64,000 bases of DNA from an archaeon (GTDB taxonomy: Archaea > Micrarchaeota > Micrarchaeia > Anstonellales > Bilamarchaeaceae): positions 70,838 through 134,837 of the forward strand of contig JAGVNI010000007.1 of the NCBI GenBank assembly GCA_020053355.1, given 5' to 3'. Position 1 is the stretch's first letter. Every line of letters begins with the position of its first letter. The notes below the pieces were generated by a model, which saw nothing but the letters and a program-made list of their open reading frames with translations, ran no database searches and had not been told where the DNA came from. A program made the translations under genes and the position numbers. This document shows, piece after piece, positions 309 to 58,254 of this stretch.

Positions 309-2758
<2,450 letters not shown>

Positions 2759-2760
2759 CT

Positions 2761-4650
2761 TTATATGTCGAGGTTCTTGACCGTGGCGCCATGCTCCTCG
2801 ATGAATGCGCGCCTCGGCTCGACCAGATCGCCCATCAGGAGCGTGAACAGCTCGTCTGCCACGAGCGCATCCTCCACCGTGACCCGCTTCAGCGTCCGCG
2901 TCTCCGGGTTCATAGTGGTCTCCCAGAGCTGGTCGGCGTTCATCTCACCAAGGCCTTTGTAGCGCTGGACGTTGGCATCCCCGCCGACGGCCTTAAGCGC
3001 GTCGGCCAGCTGCGCGTCCGTGTACATGTACTGCACGCTCTTGCCTTTCTGCACCCGGAAAAGCGGGGGCTGGGCGATGTAGAGGTATCCCTTGTCTATC
3101 AGCGCCCTGAAATAACGGTAGAACAGGGTGAGGATAAGCGTCCGGATATGCGAGCCGTCCACATCGGCATCGGTCATGATGATGACCTTGTGGTATCGCA
3201 GCTTGCCCATGTTGAAGTCCTCCTTGAACCCGGCCCCAAGGGACAGGACGATGTTCCGGATTGCCTCGCTGTCGATGATTTTGTGGATTGGGGCTTTTTC
3301 CACGTTCAGGATTTTGCCCCGAAGGGGCAGTATGGCCTGGTAGCGGCGGTCCCTTGCCTGCTTGGAGCTGCCGCCTGCCGAATCGCCCTCCACGAAATAT
3401 ATCTCGCATTTCGCCGGGTCTTCTTCCGAGCAGTCCGCCAGCTTGCCCGGGAGCACGCTGCTTTCGAAGACGTTCTTCCTGCGAATCAGGTCCTTCGCCT
3501 TCTGCGCGGCTTCCCTCGCTTCCATGGAGTTGATGATTTTCAAAGAAATGATTTTCGCGATAGGCGGGTGCTCCTCGCAGTATGTCTTGAAGGCGTCATA
3601 GAACAGGCTGTCCACCGCGCCGCGGATTTCACTGTTGCCGAGTTTCGTCTTGGTCTGGCCTTCGAACTGCGGCTCGGGCACCTTCACGCTGATAATCGCT
3701 GTCAGGCCTTCTATGGCGTCATCCCCGGTAATCTTGTGCTCCTCCTTGACAAGCTTGGCCGATTTCGTATAATCGTTCACGGCCCGTGTAAGCGCGGTCC
3801 GGAATCCGACCACATGCGTCCCGCCCTCAATCGTCTTGATGTCGTTCACGAAGCTGTAGATGCTGTCGCTGTAGCCGTCGGTGTACTGGAGGGCGATTTC
3901 GACTTCCACATGGTCGGTCTTCTTGTTCAGGTAATACGGCTCGTGGAGCTTGTTTCGCGCTTCGTTGATGTGCTTGACGAACTCGACGATTCCGCCTTCG
4001 TAGCAGAACTCCTCCTTCTTCCCGACCCGCTCGTCCGAGAGGGAGATTCTCAGGCCCTTGTTGAGGAAGGCGAGCTCCATGATGCGCTCGCGGAGGTAAT
4101 CGTAATCGAATTCAATCGAGGGGAATATCTGCGAATCGGGCTTGAACGAGACAATGGTCCCCCGCACGGCCGAGTGCGCGCCCACCTTGAATGGCTCCCT
4201 CGGCTTTCCCCTGGCATATCCGATGGTGTGGCACTTGCCGTCCCGGTGAACCTCGATGTCCATCCACTCGGAGAGGCCGTTGACGACGCCCATGCCTACC
4301 CCGTGCAGGCCCCCTGAGACCTTGTATGCCTTCTTGTCGAACTTTCCTCCTGCATGGAGGGCGCTGGCAACCAGCTCCAGGCCGGATTTGCCTGAAGGGT
4401 GCATATCCACCGGGATGCCCCTTCCGTCGTCCTTGATGAGCGCGGAGCCGTCTTTCCGGAGCTCCACCTGTATGTTCTTGCAGTGGCCTGCAAGGGCTTC
4501 GTCTATGCTGTTGTCCACGATTTCGTAGACCAGATGATGAAGACCCCTTTTGGACGTGTCGCCTATGTACATGCCAGGCCTTTTCCGGACCCCGTCCAGG
4601 CCTGTCAGGACCTGTATTTCCTTCGCTGTGTAACCGCTATCCTCAGCCAT
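2761..4650 (-). CDS. gyrB: DNA gyrase subunit B
   Basis: The 629-aa product has a GHKL ATPase N-terminus ([19 protein letters not shown]) and Toprim motifs (EGDSAGGS). It ends 2 nt before the gyrA start. Confidence 0.95.
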
Positions 4651-4895: not shown

Positions 4896-5603
4896 ATGAC
4901 GGAACAGCTAGCGCAAGTCGATTCCCCCAAATATTGGCGAATTTTTATAACTGCCGCTTCGGAATTTGACATACAAGGCGTTAATCTTCGAGAGGGGATC
5001 TGCAAGCACCTCAAATTACCGGGTCAAGTTTCGAATATCAAAGACGGAGTTGAACTAATTATATACGGAAACAAGATACAAGCAGAAGAAGCGAAAAAAA
5101 GAGTTTATGGCATTTGCAGGGCAATTCATGGTAGTGAAGATGTCGCCGGACTTGATATAACTCTCTCCGAGCGTCTATTTGACTTCGATATTTCCTCAGT
5201 AAAAGTAAATATTCTTCGTTCTGATGACCTACGGGAAATGGTTTGGGGCTTACAAGGGGCGGGAAGGGTCTTTCAGAAACAATTAGAACAAAAAAAGAAT
5301 CAGTGCTTTATTTCAATTACTTCGATTATAGGCTATGCTGTCGATGATGGAAGCAGTATTGCTCTCCTACAAAATCACCAAATCATGCTTCGAGAGATTC
5401 TTCAAGAGACCCCGTTTGATGAAGAGTTGACTAATTGGTTATTCACTTTCTTAGAAAAAATGATTGATAGTGATCGCCCTGGGTTATTAGGACTTATCGG
5501 GGCTCTTGAAAAAGAGACCGACCAATCAATTGAATCGAAGAGTAAGGATTACCAAGAACTTTACAGAAAAATCAAATTGAGGAAGGTAAAAAAGGGAAAT
5601 TAA
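4896..5603 (+). CDS. Hypothetical protein (235 aa), candidate toxin partner of the downstream Panacea-domain gene
   Basis: A complete ORF in the AT-rich island, 58 nt upstream of the DUF4065-like gene. I recognise no family from the sequence. Confidence 0.5.
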   Translation: MTEQLAQVDSPKYWRIFITAASEFDIQGVNLREGICKHLKLPGQVSNIKDGVELIIYGNKIQAEEAKKRVYGICRAIHGSEDVAGLDITLSERLFDFDISSVKVNILRSDDLREMVWGLQGAGRVFQKQLEQKKNQCFISITSIIGYAVDDGSSIALLQNHQIMLREILQETPFDEELTNWLFTFLEKMIDSDRPGLLGLIGALEKETDQSIESKSKDYQELYRKIKLRKVKKGN

Positions 5604-46551: not shown

Positions 46552-46705
46552 CTGATATGTATCTCGGAAACACTTTATAAATGTTTATTTTTATGGTCAA
46601 ATGTAATTTTCCATACCCCCCCTGCAAGGCCGACATGCCGCGCGCACATGGCTTGCGATATGATTTAATTACTTTATGCCCATCAGATTGCTCACTACTT
46701 TGACT

Positions 46706-46776
46706 GCGACCGTAGTCTATCGGTATGATTCGAGGTTGCCAATCTCGCGGGCCGGGTTCAATTCCCGGCGGTCGCA
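46706..46776 (+). tRNA. tRNA-Gly (anticodon GCC)
   Basis: The acceptor stem is GCGACCG/CGGTCGC with discriminator A. The D-loop has GG. The anticodon stem is CGAGG/TCTCG with loop TTGCCAA. The T arm is CCGGG-TTCAATT-CCCGG. A T-run follows. Confidence 0.6.
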
Positions 46777-46778
46777 AA

Positions 46779-46785
46779 TTTTTTT
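46779..46785 (+). terminator. Oligo-T terminator after the tRNA
   Basis: TTTTTTT immediately 3' of the tRNA. Confidence 0.4.
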
Positions 46786-46818
46786 AATAAAAATTTGGGT
46801 CCCCCGGGAATTGATGAG

Positions 46819-46836
46819 CAATTCCCGGCGGTCGCA
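46819..46836 (+). repeat. Direct repeat of the tRNA-Gly 3' end (CAATTCCCGGCGGTCGCA), copy 2
   Basis: An exact 18-nt match to 46759-46776. Confidence 0.6.
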
Positions 46837-46934
46837 TTCCCATTACTTTTGTCTTCAGCTTCTCACCGGGCAAAAGTAAAGGGATTGGTCAAAAGCCCTG
46901 AGGTTTACTCCGGCCGGAATTGTGTGGTTCCCTT

Positions 46935-46952
46935 CAATTCCCGACGGTCGCA
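46935..46952 (+). repeat. Direct repeat of the tRNA-Gly 3' end, copy 3 (1 mismatch)
   Basis: CAATTCCCGACGGTCGCA, followed by a T-run. The T-stem is disrupted, so it is not a functional tRNA half. Confidence 0.55.
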
Positions 46953-47123
46953 TTTTTTCCGCAGAAAAAATGGGACACGGGAAGCGCCGCTTCCCTCTGT
47001 CGCATTTTTGTTCACTTGCCTCGCGCATAGCGCTCGGCGTGAACACGGTTTATTACCTAGACGGCTTATTAGATCCGCTCTTCTAATCGAGGCTTATTCC
47101 TAATTCTCTTGGCTATCGTGCAC

Positions 47124-54296: not shown

Positions 54297-55451
54297 TCAT
54301 TCCAAACCAATCCGGCCAAGCCGCGAAAGCAAACCGGAAATCTCAACCCTGCGGCCCTCGTAATAATTCCATTTCCCGTCATTGAACTGGTAAAGGTCGC
54401 TGTCGGTGATGATGAAAGCGAGGGCGTCATCCTGGAAGTCGCAGCTTGCATCGCCCCCCTCGCAGACGGAGAACTCGTTCCCAACCTTTCCCATGTAATG
54501 CCCGTCCTGCGGCTCGAACAATGCCGAGCCGGCCAGATTGGAGTTCGTGATGTCATCGGGCGTCTCTATCGTCCTGTTCGTGAGCATGATTACGCAGTGG
54601 CCGATTCTCATCTCCCCGCCCGTGTCATAGAAGTAGCAGACGGCATACGGGTTGCTGTCGCGGGTGTTCCCGACCCCAATCCCCCGCGTATCCGTAAAAT
54701 ACCAATACCTTCCGGAAGACGTGTCCTCATAAACGGTATAGTCGCCCGCCCCGCCCGTCCACGCCTCGATTTCGAGGTCCTCCTGCTTCATCCTATTCAG
54801 GAGCGCCTTGAAGAAGAGGGAATAATCCTCGCAGTCGCCCCCTTTCCTCGCGATGATTTCGTCGATTGAATACAGCCGGTCGCCTGTGGGGTCGTCCTTG
54901 TATGAGAAGCCCAATTCGTTCTCCATAAGGTATGTGACGCATGCGAGTTTCAGGACACCGTCATTTTCGCAGCTCTTTTCCACCTTGTTCATGAACCTGT
55001 CCGCCTTCAGCGTCGAAGGCAATGCGGAATTGTTCCGGAACCATTGTATGGACTCGTTAATCTGCCCGTCGATTGCAACCGCTTCTTCCCTGATGCGGGC
55101 GATGTCCTCGGTCGCTTCGCTCAGGGTGTTTTTCGTTTCTTCGAGTTCGGCCTCGCTTTCATTAAGCTGCTCGCTCAGGCCTTCGACCTCAATCGTCCTG
55201 TTCCCGAGTGCGAGGGTCAGGTTCTCAATCTCGTCCTGCTGCCGCTCGGCATCCCTGTTTTTTGCCCGGAGCTCGGCTTCAGTCATGCTTAGTTCGTTTT
55301 GGGCCGAACTGAGATTTGCTTCCACTCCGGCCAACTCAGTCTTGAGGTTCCTATTCTCGGCGGAACTCTGGAGGAAGAGGGCCAGGAATACGGCGGTGGT
55401 GATGGCGAATATTGCAATCAGTGCCACCAATACAATATCCCTTGCTTTCAC
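54297..55451 (-). CDS. Membrane-anchored coiled-coil protein with a transglutaminase-like core
   Basis: An N-terminal TM, about 120 aa of coiled coil, then a GGDCEDYSLFF Cys motif and a downstream IGHCVIM/D. Confidence 0.6.
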   Translation of the reverse strand: MKARDIVLVALIAIFAITTAVFLALFLQSSAENRNLKTELAGVEANLSSAQNELSMTEAELRAKNRDAERQQDEIENLTLALGNRTIEVEGLSEQLNESEAELEETKNTLSEATEDIARIREEAVAIDGQINESIQWFRNNSALPSTLKADRFMNKVEKSCENDGVLKLACVTYLMENELGFSYKDDPTGDRLYSIDEIIARKGGDCEDYSLFFKALLNRMKQEDLEIEAWTGGAGDYTVYEDTSSGRYWYFTDTRGIGVGNTRDSNPYAVCYFYDTGGEMRIGHCVIMLTNRTIETPDDITNSNLAGSALFEPQDGHYMGKVGNEFSVCEGGDASCDFQDDALAFIITDSDLYQFNDGKWNYYEGRRVEISGLLSRLGRIGLE

Positions 55452-55817
55452 AACCAGCCTCCTTTCCCTAGGCTTTTAATCCTTCTAATGCATAATTACT
55501 CCAGAGTGAGGGGCAGGCAGCCTACGTTTTTTCTTCTGAAAAAATGAGGAAGTTCCGCCCTCCGCGAGAGATACTGCCCTTTAAGGGGGCGGACACGGAA
55601 CAGAAACGATACCCAAAGTCCGCAAGGGCAAGGGATGCAACGCATCCTGAACTGCGCAAGCAGTTCGGGAGCTTTGGAACGAAGTTCCATTGATCGTGTC
55701 TTATCTCGATGACGGAGCAAGGCGCTTTGCGCCGCTCTCCTTAATCCGAAAGGATTTTGGGGCCTTTTGGCCGCGTAAGCGGACAAATTGCAGTCAAATG
55801 CTGCCGAAATACAGAAG

Positions 55818-55850
55818 GCGGACTATGCCCCTCACTTGAACTTTTTCTCC
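55818..55850 (+). repeat. 33-nt direct repeat, copy 1 (GCGGACTATGCCCCTCACTTGAACTTTTTCTCC)
   Basis: It repeats at 55968-56000 with 2 differences. It is part of a diverged tandem duplication of about 150-190 nt. Confidence 0.6.
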
Positions 55851-55967
55851 TTATCAACCCCTGTCAAAACTTCACTAAACATCCTGTCCGGTTTGACTCC
55901 GGCCTTTGTGAAACCTCAGGTGGGGGTCTGAAAGGGGACGCGCAAGTCAAACCGGAGAGCCCCTTTC

Positions 55968-56000
55968 GCGGACTATGCCCCTCACTTGAACTTTTCCTCC
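55968..56000 (+). repeat. 33-nt direct repeat, copy 2
   Basis: See copy 1. There are further shared blocks: AAAACTTCACTAAAC at 55866/56026, and CTGTCCG(G/A)TTTGACTCCGG at 55884/56072. Confidence 0.6.
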
Positions 56001-56093
56001 GGTCTGACACCGGATAAAACTTCACTAAACTTCAGCCGGTCTGACTCCGTACAGACGATTTTATCAATCGCCTGTCCGATTTGACTCCGGCTT

Positions 56094-56384
56094 TTGTGCA
56101 ATCTGGTGGCTCTCATGAAATCGATAACGGATTTGAAGGACTCGGACATCATCGAGATAAACGGCGAGAAATACCGGGTCCTTGCAAGCGGACCACCCAA
56201 TTCCCTATGGTACCATGAGGGCCGGAAGGATGTGGAATATGGGGTCGATTTGGTGAAGCTCGGGTCTGATGCGATAACCCCTACGCATCAACTGGGGTAT
56301 TTCTCAAAAAAGCCGGACGAATTCCGGGTTTATCGGCTAGGGAAAGAAGCGGTCCCTGAAAGCGTCGAGGCCGTCAAGTTTTGA
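56094..56384 (+). CDS. Small hypothetical protein (96 aa; the start may be MKSITDL at 56116)
   Basis: Complete ORF downstream of the repeat region. Confidence 0.4.
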   Translation: MCNLVALMKSITDLKDSDIIEINGEKYRVLASGPPNSLWYHEGRKDVEYGVDLVKLGSDAITPTHQLGYFSKKPDEFRVYRLGKEAVPESVEAVKF

Positions 56385-56400
56385 TCGTGCATCATGACGA

Positions 56401-58254
56401 ATGACGATGCGGGCCCCAAAACATATTAATAACCCCGCGACGTATTCCGATTTGATGTTCGAGATTCTTTTTTTGATAGGGCTTATAGCGCTGATCGGCT
56501 TCGCGGCCAGATGGGTTTTCGAGCGGACACGGGTGCCGGAAATCCTCATCCTCCTCGCCATCGGGTTCGCGCTCGGCCCGATGGGGCCGTTCTCCAGCTT
56601 CTCCGCATTCGACATCAACCTGCAGAGCTTCCGCGGCATAGCGCCCATAATAGGCGCGGTCGCAATAGTATCATTCGTTTTCGAAGCCGGCTTGCAGCTC
56701 AAGGTGGGGCGCATCCTCAAAAGCCTGTCCTTCTCCACAATGTTCGCGATTACCAGCCTCGTGCTCTGCATAGGCGTCCTCGCTGCCCTGCTGCATTTCG
56801 GATTCGGCTGGAACATCACCGCATCCCTCCTTCTCGCGACGATATTCGGGGGTCCCTCTTCCTTCGCAATCTATTCGATGCTCCCCCTCGTCCGCACGAG
56901 CAACCATTCGAGGGGCATCCTGTACCTGGAGGGCACGCTGTCGGCAATCCTGATAAGCGTCATAGCAATCACAATCCTGCGATACCCCGGCGTCGAGGCC
57001 GGGACGATGCCTCTCCTGCAGCTGGTCATCTCGTCGTTTTCAATCTCGTTCATACTGGGGCTCGCCGCCGGCCTTGCAATCCTCTGGCTGCTCTTCAGGT
57101 TCAGGATAAGGAAATTCGGCTACCTCCTCACTTTCTCCGCCCTGCTCATGCTGTTCTTCCTGGATTTCGAGCTGCTTGGGGGAATCGGGGTGATATCCAT
57201 CGCGCTAATCGGGCTGGTCATCGGGAACTCGGGCGACGTGTTCAAGTTGCTGGGCATCACCGGGCGTTTCGAGATGGACGAAGCGGCCAAGGGATTCCGT
57301 GACGAGATAAGCCTTTTCATCACCACGTTCTTCTTCGTCTACCTCGGCATGATGGCGAGGCCTGAGTTGCTGGCCGACCCCAGCTACATTCTCCTCGCGG
57401 TGACGATGATAGTCGCAATCCTTTTCTGCCGGTGCATCATACTGCTCATCGCGAACATGCTGAAGATATCCCAGCACAACGAAGACCTCCTGCTGGCGGT
57501 CATGATTCCCCGCGACATCCTGAGCGCGACCCTCGCCACATTCGTGCTGCTTTACCCCGGGCCCGCGAGCTTCAACATCGAAGTCGTGATAATCCCAATC
57601 GTCCTATCGTCCCTGGTCAGCGTGGCTGGGGCAGGGTATTACGAACGCCTGTTCCAGCATTCGTTCCTCTTCAAGCGCGAGCTGGATTTGAGCGACGGGC
57701 GAAAAATCGTCCTGCGCACAATCACGAGGGACGATTTCCCGAAGCTCCGGCAGTTCCTCAACGACCTGGTGAAAGAAAGCGCCCTGATAGCCTTCGACCG
57801 CTACGTCAACCCGATAGAGGAAAGCGAAATGGGCCGGGAGAGCCTGGACAAAATCAACCGCGGCGACATGTTGATGTGGGTCGGCGATTTCAATGGGCGC
57901 ATCATCGCGCGGGCGGTCGCGCAGAGGATGGAGAAGCGCGAGCGGGACAACGTTTGCCTGAGCCTTTATGTGGCCAGGGACTTCCGGGGGGTGCATCTCG
58001 GCACGACCCTGCTGCGCATGCTGATTGAGGAATCCCAGCGGGTCTTCAAGCCGCACAGCATCTACCTCTCCGTCTATTCGAACAACGAGGCCGCGGTGCA
58101 CCTGTACGAGAAGGAGAGCTTCCGCAAGGTCGGCGTGCTTCCGGAATGGGGCAAGTACGAAGACACATACCTGGACGAAATTTACATGGTATACGACCCG
58201 AAAGGGGCGCCGGCCGGGGGGCCGAAGCGGAAAAAGAAAAAGGGCGCTTCATGA
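56401..58254 (+). CDS. Na+/H+ exchanger-family antiporter fused to a C-terminal GNAT acetyltransferase domain
   Basis: A polytopic domain of about 420 aa, then an uninterrupted reading frame into a GNAT fold (VAQRMEKRERDNVCLSLYVARDFRGVHLGTTLLRMLIEE...AAVHLYEKESFRKVG). Confidence 0.75.
   Translation: MTMRAPKHINNPATYSDLMFEILFLIGLIALIGFAARWVFERTRVPEILILLAIGFALGPMGPFSSFSAFDINLQSFRGIAPIIGAVAIVSFVFEAGLQLKVGRILKSLSFSTMFAITSLVLCIGVLAALLHFGFGWNITASLLLATIFGGPSSFAIYSMLPLVRTSNHSRGILYLEGTLSAILISVIAITILRYPGVEAGTMPLLQLVISSFSISFILGLAAGLAILWLLFRFRIRKFGYLLTFSALLMLFFLDFELLGGIGVISIALIGLVIGNSGDVFKLLGITGRFEMDEAAKGFRDEISLFITTFFFVYLGMMARPELLADPSYILLAVTMIVAILFCRCIILLIANMLKISQHNEDLLLAVMIPRDILSATLATFVLLYPGPASFNIEVVIIPIVLSSLVSVAGAGYYERLFQHSFLFKRELDLSDGRKIVLRTITRDDFPKLRQFLNDLVKESALIAFDRYVNPIEESEMGRESLDKINRGDMLMWVGDFNGRIIARAVAQRMEKRERDNVCLSLYVARDFRGVHLGTTLLRMLIEESQRVFKPHSIYLSVYSNNEAAVHLYEKESFRKVGVLPEWGKYEDTYLDEIYMVYDPKGAPAGGPKRKKKKGAS

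Follow-up and report, generated by a model that had tools for sequence, protein, structure and literature searches.

A duplicated 3' end and conserved trailer at the predicted RNase P RNA gene of a Micrarchaeota archaeon

In Escherichia coli, tandem repeats that take in the end of the gene stand behind the stable-RNA genes rnpB and tyrT. On the K-12 chromosome (NC_000913.3) a 113 bp x 3.5 array lies over the last 23 nucleotides (nt) of rnpB, with a terminator hairpin in each unit, and at tyrT/tyrV a 178 bp x 3.1 array lies over the last 19 nt of tyrV. The rnpB repeats were described in the early 1980s. We report here an array of this kind within a 64 kb stretch of DNA (the window) from a Micrarchaeota (DPANN) archaeon. 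An earlier reading, made from the letters of the window (the sequence-only reading), had described the region as a 640-bp structured intergenic spacer upstream of an antiporter-GNAT gene. About 330 nt of that spacer are an RNA gene, identified by its sequence as the gene for archaeal RNase P RNA (55506-55835), and the next gene downstream is a small open reading frame (ORF) at 56115-56384, with the antiporter ATG following at 56455. The repeats represent the 3' end of the RNase P RNA gene, duplicated in tandem with a period of 150 nt together with a conserved trailer, here called element E. We think it probable that the locus comprises an RNase P RNA gene with its own promoter and a 3' tandem array, the trailer of which would form stable-RNA 3' ends.

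The RNase P RNA gene

A search against Rfam, one of the checks proposed with the sequence-only reading, was run twice, at the default gathering threshold and then at an E-value threshold. The default scan of the window returned tRNA-Gly only and missed the RNase P RNA; the E-value search aligned model RF00373 with 55506-55835 (+) over model positions 1-288 of 288, with 68.2 bits and an E-value of 1e-18. The default scan was silent because 68.2 bits is below the curated cut-off of 84 bits for this model, and the score was low because the window RNA has a 109-nt insertion at 14 model positions, an extended helix at 55640-55693, and one hairpin in place of the two of the consensus. The gene and the element in front of it are as follows.

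55506-55835 (+): archaeal RNase P RNA gene, assigned by the full-length RF00373 match, orthologues and covariation
55471-55482 (+): TATA/BRE-like box (GGCTTTTAATCC), putative promoter element of the RNase P RNA gene, assigned by position and conservation

Orthologous loci were gathered by scanning a genome collection with the downstream antiporter-GNAT protein, which led to metagenome-assembled genomes (MAGs) of Candidatus Micrarchaeota. RNase P RNA lies upstream of the antiporter in L001, L002, L003, L011, L012, L013, L015 and L016 (L012 is a metagenome contig and L003 an independent MAG), and the gene order RNase P RNA to antiporter-GNAT is common to the window and these relatives. Over 269 nt L002 was 89% identical to the window. 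Two of the relatives scored above the RF00373 cut-off (L002 with 88.4 bits, L011 with 88.1 bits); the score was below the threshold in 3 of the 5 orthologous loci scored, namely the window, L001 (5609-5829) and L003 (5347-5675). In L001 the model misplaced the 5' end of the RNA, which the alignment puts near 5529.

The universally conserved stretches CR-I to CR-V are present (GAGGAAGUUCC, ACAGAAACGA, GAUGCAACG, AGUCAAAUGC and ACAGAAGGCGGACUAU), align to the RF00373 consensus, and are invariant among 7 orthologues. The repeat finder recovered the terminal helix P1 as a perfect 11-nt inverted repeat (55505-55515 with 55826-55836), and a consensus fold (alifold) of the 7 orthologues gave 71 pairs, 9 of them compensatory, with P1 included and with P4 pairing UCCGCC with GGCGGA. 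The hairpins to which the sequence-only reading had drawn attention further upstream do exist (GGAACGAAGTTCC at 55676-55688; TCCGCCC at 55554-55560 with GGGCGGA at 55587-55593), although they are not accessory structures but helices inside the RNase P RNA. The window copy thus shares with archaeal RNase P RNA the full extent of the model, the conserved stretches, a P1 formed from both ends and the P4 pairing, and differs from it in scoring below the cut-off, in lineage-specific extra helices and in the single hairpin that stands for two. We conclude that 55506-55835 is an RNase P RNA gene, a previously unannotated housekeeping gene; the RNA and its tRNA 5'-processing activity are predicted. 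DPANN archaea are expected to have RNase P in its ribonucleoprotein form (PMC6380272).

The optional helices of the RNA form a mosaic among these close relatives (window, L001, L002, L003, L011, L012, L013). A long insert in the P3 region is found in L001 and L003, the extension of about 50 nt at 55640-55693 in the window and L002, and an insert of about 55 nt after the GGCGCTTTGCGCC hairpin in the window, L013 and L003. This distribution suggests inter-lineage recombination or repeated loss.

The GGCTTTTAATCC box is centred some 29 nt before the start of the RNA and forms part of a stretch, GGCTTTTAATC.TT.TAA.GCA.AAT, that shows no variation across five orthologous loci; on this position and conservation we regard it as the putative promoter of the gene. 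A sigma-70 and intrinsic-terminator scan was uninformative for an archaeon. Default pipelines would leave at this locus a gap of about 650 bp resembling a mysterious structured spacer, and annotations of these Micrarchaeota lacking an RNase P RNA gene.

The tandem units and trailer E

The repeats begin within the last nucleotides of the RNase P RNA gene and were resolved into the following features.

55818-55967 (+): repeat unit 1, consisting of the true RNase P RNA 3' end (55818-55835), trailer E1 (55836-55916) and spacer S1 (55917-55967)
55968-56114 (+): repeat unit 2, with a pseudo RNase P RNA 3' end (55968-55985) and trailer E2
55837-55874 (+): hairpin SL1, copy 1, formed by TGAACTTTT, a 20-nt loop and AAAACTTCA; 9-bp stem with one C.C mismatch
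55987-56024 (+): hairpin SL1, copy 2, enclosing a smaller hairpin of 6 bp (UCCGGU-CUGAC-ACCGGA)
55884-55902 (+): conserved second half of E, copy 1 (CTGTCCGGTTTGACTCCGG), conserved in L003, L011, L012 and L002
55945-55959 (+): inverted partial motif copy (AGTCAAACCGGAGAG) in spacer S1, from the repeat finder
56031-56110 (+): nested tandem duplication of about 40 nt in unit 2, with a CCG(G/A)T(T/C)TGACTCCG copy per half (56036-56049 and 56076-56089)

The opening stretch of each unit, GCGGACTATGCCCCTCAC, corresponds to the terminal 18 nt of the RNA and to the 3' strand of helices P4 and P1; a further 132 nt follow, so that the units run head to tail with a period of 150; the homology between them continues 85-100 nt past the gene end. 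The sequence-only reading was correct in seeing a diverged tandem duplication here, and its 33-nt blocks (GCGGACTATGCCCCTCACTTGAACTTTT(T/C)CTCC) are present at 55818-55850 and 55968-56000, as is CTGTCCG(G/A)TTTGACTCCGG at 55884-55902 and 56072-56090. With the repeat finder the 33-nt block extended to a 66-nt pair (55818-55883 / 55968-56033, 82% identity) and the CTGTCCG block to a 34-nt pair (55883-55916 / 56071-56104, 88% identity); a shorter pair was found at 55994-56012 / 56031-56049. AAAACTTCACTAAAC occurs twice as claimed (0.01 expected by chance), at 55866, where it is the 3' arm of SL1 copy 1, and at 56016, not 56026. The motif CCG(G/A)T(T/C)TGAC(T/A)CCG (CCGGTYTGACWCCG type) recurs as had been noticed, in four copies and not three (55888, 55999, 56036 and 56076), and was found nowhere else in the 64 kb. 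When 2 mismatches were allowed four copies were found and 9 of 100 shuffles also reached four, a number therefore not beyond chance. The nested duplication in unit 2 has the same form in L013, L015 and L016.

A pairing had also been proposed between this motif and an inverted copy at 55937. The complementarity is real, the 15-nt arm at 55945-55959 being 93% complementary to 55884-55898, but the inverted copy (GTCAAACCGG) lies at 55946-55955 within that arm, and it was not conserved in the homologous spacer of L003, the one other genome with the spacer. The inverted partial copy is probably incidental. Neither this pairing between the motif and 55945-55959 nor one between the motif and AGUCAAAU in the RNase P RNA is conserved in L003 or in other E sequence types, and both were therefore rejected. 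Protein coding in the repeats was likewise rejected: the overlapping ORFs gave no Pfam match, and one of them overlaps the RNase P RNA gene.

In the locus alignment the RNase P RNA is directly followed, in every relative, by a conserved E of about 80 nt, beyond which lie a poorly conserved spacer and then the antiporter TATA box near its ATG. E contains a T-rich run, the hairpin SL1 (9 bp, 20-nt loop) and the block AAACATCCTGTCCGGTYTGACTCCG, with the order TTGAA..TTT, the 20-nt loop, AAA..TTCA, and then YYAAAC(A/T)TC and CTGTCCGGTYTGACTCCG. The SL1 pattern TGAANNTTT-N16-24-AAANNTTCA gave 2 matches in the window against 0 expected. Covariation analysis, the other check proposed with the sequence-only reading, was run for the RNase P RNA, with the 9 compensatory pairs of 71 given above, and for SL1, where 96.7% of the cells were paired among 10 distinct copies and double changes occurred at 3 of the 9 pairs. 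This SL1 score was reached by 0 of 500 shuffles and by no slid register; the covarying arm pairs are TGAAAATTT/AAATTTTCA, TGAACTTTT/AAAAGTTCA, TGAAACTTT/AAAGTTTCA and TCAAACTTT/AAAGTTTGA, and the loop is 20 nt in all copies. The minimum free energy (MFE) fold of 55986-56104 in unit 2 includes SL1 copy 2 (-31.8 kcal/mol, z = -3.8); the fold of unit 1 was no better than shuffles (z = 0.14).

A profile of E matched only directly after RNase P RNA and directly after tRNA-Gly, two gene kinds on which its link to stable-RNA genes rests; no copy was found elsewhere in the window, nor in 67 kb around gyrA of three relatives, a span also without tRNA genes. The homologue 3' of tRNA-Gly(GCC) lies at 181-257 in L012, and also at 2668-2790 (-) in L028, 2753-2806 (-) in L029 and 2588-3013 (-) in L031, in a gene context different from that behind RNase P RNA. 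In L031 the last 19 nt of tRNA-Gly together with E are tandemly duplicated with a period of 96. The window's own tRNA-Gly(GCC), at 46705-46777, has no E in its flank; within its region (46705-46960) it is followed by two extra tRNA-Gly 3' ends, each starting from the T-loop (CAATTCCCGGCGGTCGCA at 46820-46837 and TCAATTCCCGACGGTCGCA at 46935-46953), giving three copies within 250 nt. Between these extra ends are T-runs, an AT palindrome and long hairpins ending ..GTCGCA that resemble acceptor/T-arm minihelices. Relatives carry variants of this tRNA-Gly 3'-end array, and L030 has two complete tRNA-Gly genes. A covarying trailer hairpin common to two different stable-RNA genes is a concrete candidate for an archaeal 3'-end signal.

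The number of units behind RNase P RNA differs among relatives. There is a single unit in L001, L002, L011 and L012, whereas L003 has two with the same junction as the window (..GAGCCCCTT.C|GCGGACTATG); since L003 is an independent MAG, the duplication is not an assembly artefact. In L013 the RNase P RNA is joined directly to a unit 2 of the window type, with exactly 150 nt of unit 1 absent. Unit 2 of the window is 95.9% identical to that of L013, where the flanking genes are 83-89% identical, and E1 is 88.9% identical to the single trailer of L012. When the comparison is restricted to the hairpin part, unit 1 agrees with the L012 trailer at 94% and unit 2 with that of L013 at 100%, against 75% between the two units. 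The two units of L003 are 97% identical to each other, and the spacer is 72% identical between the window and L003. The two-unit pattern fits an old array of unstable copy number, with differential loss, homogenisation or inter-lineage recombination, and not a single recent slip.

Flanking genes and competing explanations

Two further features lie between the array and the antiporter-GNAT coding region.

56115-56384 (+): small lineage-specific gene of 89 amino acids (aa), supported by a homologue and by purifying selection
56423-56433 (+): TATA-like box (ATATTAATAAC) of the antiporter-GNAT gene, assigned by conservation

The product of the small ORF had no Pfam match. Its homologue is 85% identical, and in L013-L016 the ORF is found at the corresponding site, after the trailer and ahead of the antiporter promoter; in the locus alignment it is absent from L001, L002, L003, L011 and L012. 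It is carried by an insert of about 290 nt that is specific to the window and L013. Between the ORF and its homologue 22 codon differences were synonymous and 13 non-synonymous, and 24 of 36 changes fell at third positions, a pattern by which we judge the ORF to be under purifying selection. The ATATTAATAAC box is located about 25 nt before the antiporter ATG and is conserved in all orthologous loci; Pfam assigned Na_H_Exchanger and GNAT domains to 56401-58254. On the other side of the RNase P RNA gene, the divergent gene at 54297-55451 (-) specifies a protein of 384 aa whose sole Pfam matches are of coiled-coil type; it varies between relatives, aligning at megablast level with L003 only and with 89% identity in a pairwise comparison with L013. 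Several Micrarchaeota copies among the GyrA homologues (P0067, P0073, P0089, P0109, P0118, P0123 and P0138) are 950-1330 aa long with intein/homing-endonuclease Pfam domains; the window GyrA (305-2749, -) has no intein or homing-endonuclease Pfam domain. The L009 contig (CAVTHI010000002.1, 775-11094) matched the window region on either strand, forming an inverted duplication that turns at about 5.8 kb, where Rfam gave a spurious plant microRNA (miRNA) match; L009 looks like a fold-back assembly chimera.

The reading that we prefer, an RNase P RNA gene with its own promoter and a 3' array, gives E a role as a trailer or 3'-end formation module of stable-RNA transcripts in this lineage, through termination, a protective hairpin or a processing signal. 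We infer this role from the position and orientation of E, from its covariation and from the E. coli analogy. Unequal recombination or slippage between short homologies would have amplified E together with the gene end, as at E. coli rnpB and tyrT; the junction has a possible microhomology, GGCGGA in the RNase P RNA versus GGCGA in the ancestral spacer. The additional unit would do no more than back up termination or insulate, and might supply promoter context to the small gene at 56115. Several observations weigh against this reading. SL1 of unit 1 has the C.C mismatch and is missing from the MFE fold; the T-run is short (T3-T4) in one E sequence type (L001, L002 and L003); and archaeal termination is not known to require hairpins. 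With two kinds of stable-RNA gene only, E is not to be called a general module. Each unit is also nearer to the allele of another relative than to its sister, so that the array is not a simple recent duplication in place, and its history needs an old duplication with differential loss, or inter-lineage recombination.

An explanation that concerns the second unit in particular is that it is a neutral, decaying leftover of the duplication and that only the unit attached to the gene matters. The units of the window are only 80-88% alike, most relatives manage with one, and the spacer has diverged to the 72% given above for the comparison with L003. We find this doubtful, because the 95.9% identity of unit 2 with L013 is above the 83-89% of the neighbouring protein-coding DNA, the two units of L003 have been kept 97% identical, and SL1 is intact in both units of the window. 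The sequence-only reading had suggested, as one of two possibilities, a complex regulatory region. On such a view the CCGGTYTGACWCCG motifs would be operators for a transcription factor, or the repeats would provide the small ORF or the antiporter with promoters or a leader. Within 200 nt there are indeed four copies of the motif and one inverted partial copy, against none in the remainder of the window; unit 2, with 96% conservation in L013, is there too placed directly before the small ORF; and TATA-like strings occur in unit 2 (GATTTTATCAATC, 56058-56070) and in L002 (CCTTTATAAAACC). But motif copy number follows the history of duplication, with one copy in four relatives, and the 9 shuffles in 100 that reach four copies with 2 mismatches lessen its weight; E is retained in relatives that lack the small ORF, in every case joined to the RNA 3' end, and is found behind tRNA-Gly as well, in a different gene context. 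A role of the repeats as antiporter promoter or leader was rejected, since in every relative a conserved TATA box belonging to the antiporter precedes its ATG by about 25 nt. What is duplicated is an RNase P RNA 3' end with its trailer and not a multi-operator region; a cis-regulatory explanation is distinctly unlikely, though regulation of the downstream small gene by unit 2 is possible.

The guess of a non-coding RNA, made in the same earlier reading, holds for the RNase P RNA at 55506-55835 and does not extend to the repeats, in which no new RNA gene was found. An independent small RNA there (C/D-box, H/ACA or another structured RNA) would accord with the z of -3.8 for unit 2, with the covariation of SL1, and with CUGA and, in some relatives, UGAUGA strings on opposite strands. 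It is very improbable: Rfam at E <= 10 gave for the repeats a single chance-level miRNA match (E 9.4, 56033-56093), the RNase P RNA 3' end and E have no promoter between them, and the fold of unit 1 had the z of 0.14. A C/D-box or H/ACA RNA was rejected, since the C-box-like string of the relatives on the minus strand (GTTTGATGA) is mutated in the window (GTTTAGTGA) and has no D box partner. Integration scars would account for the repeats in another manner, with an attP that carried the RNase P RNA or tRNA-Gly 3' end and E having integrated, after which nearly all of the element was deleted, E being the recombination site or an arm of the element. In the tRNA the duplication begins inside the T-loop (TCAATTCCCGGCGGTCGCA), a classical attachment (att) position, and the window has this part three times within 250 nt; homologous E adjoins two unrelated RNA genes; the 150-nt unit is present or absent with precise boundaries; and a lineage-specific gene comes right after E2. 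Against this, the repeats are only 18-51 nt apart, a space that contains neither an integrase gene nor foreign DNA, relatives keep the order of the genes at both loci, and the unit homology runs 85-100 nt past the RNA gene and does not end at a core. Neither the 3' ends of RNase P RNA and tRNA-Gly nor the spacer were found on any viral contig (plasmids and complete MAGs were outside this search), and the 11 viral matches to a degenerate hairpin pattern were all in low-GC contigs (24-38%), with none fitting the E profile. The E. coli rnpB and tyrT arrays show the same architecture without known integrases. We regard integration scars as quite improbable.

It is also conceivable, if unlikely, that E is a lineage-specific recombination-prone or mobile Micrarchaeota module, which joins stable-RNA 3' ends and copies itself with the last 18-19 nt or so of the host gene. 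Were this so, miniature elements mobilised by an integrase could use E as their att site, which would make an archaeal integration target of the RNase P RNA gene, or E could be a dedicated archaeal stable-RNA 3'-end signal whose hairpin also drives template switching. The boundary of 18-23 nt shared with E. coli rnpB and tyrT would then point to a common, unexplained mechanism across domains.

Comparison with att sites and the E. coli arrays

Integrase att sites at tRNA and tmRNA 3' ends share with these loci the direct repeats of the 3' part of an RNA gene and, for the tRNA, a repeat that begins from the T-loop; the window differs in having no element or integrase between the repeats and in homology that extends far past the gene end. 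Literature searches on rnpB as an integration site gave nothing usable.

The likeness to the E. coli arrays is closer. The window array starts in the last 20 nt or so of its gene, runs head to tail and has a trailer hairpin in each unit, as do arrays of the rnpB/tyrT type; the terminator function of the hairpin is putative. At rnpB, as here, the units start in the 3' strand of P4/P1 (23 nt of the gene, versus 18 nt in the window). The rnpB hairpin is a GC-rich Rho-independent terminator with a U-run, whereas SL1 is AU-rich with the T-run in its 5' arm; rnpB has 3.5 near-identical units in a bacterial host and the window two diverged units in an archaeon; and the two arrays have no sequence homology. 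The tyrT/tyrV units open with the last 19 nt of the tRNA, just as L031 repeats 19 nt of tRNA-Gly with E and as the tRNA-Gly 3' end is tripled in the window. From the tyrT/tyrV trailer come a small RNA and a tiny protein, annotated as rttR and tpr, with none comparable shown in the window. The finding thus combines a known kind of gene with a known kind of 3' array, with the shared trailer hairpin as a modest side result, and current views are not overturned by it. It offers a clean, small archaeal case of an old and unexplained bacterial pattern, in which tandem units take in the final 20 nt or so of a stable-RNA gene.

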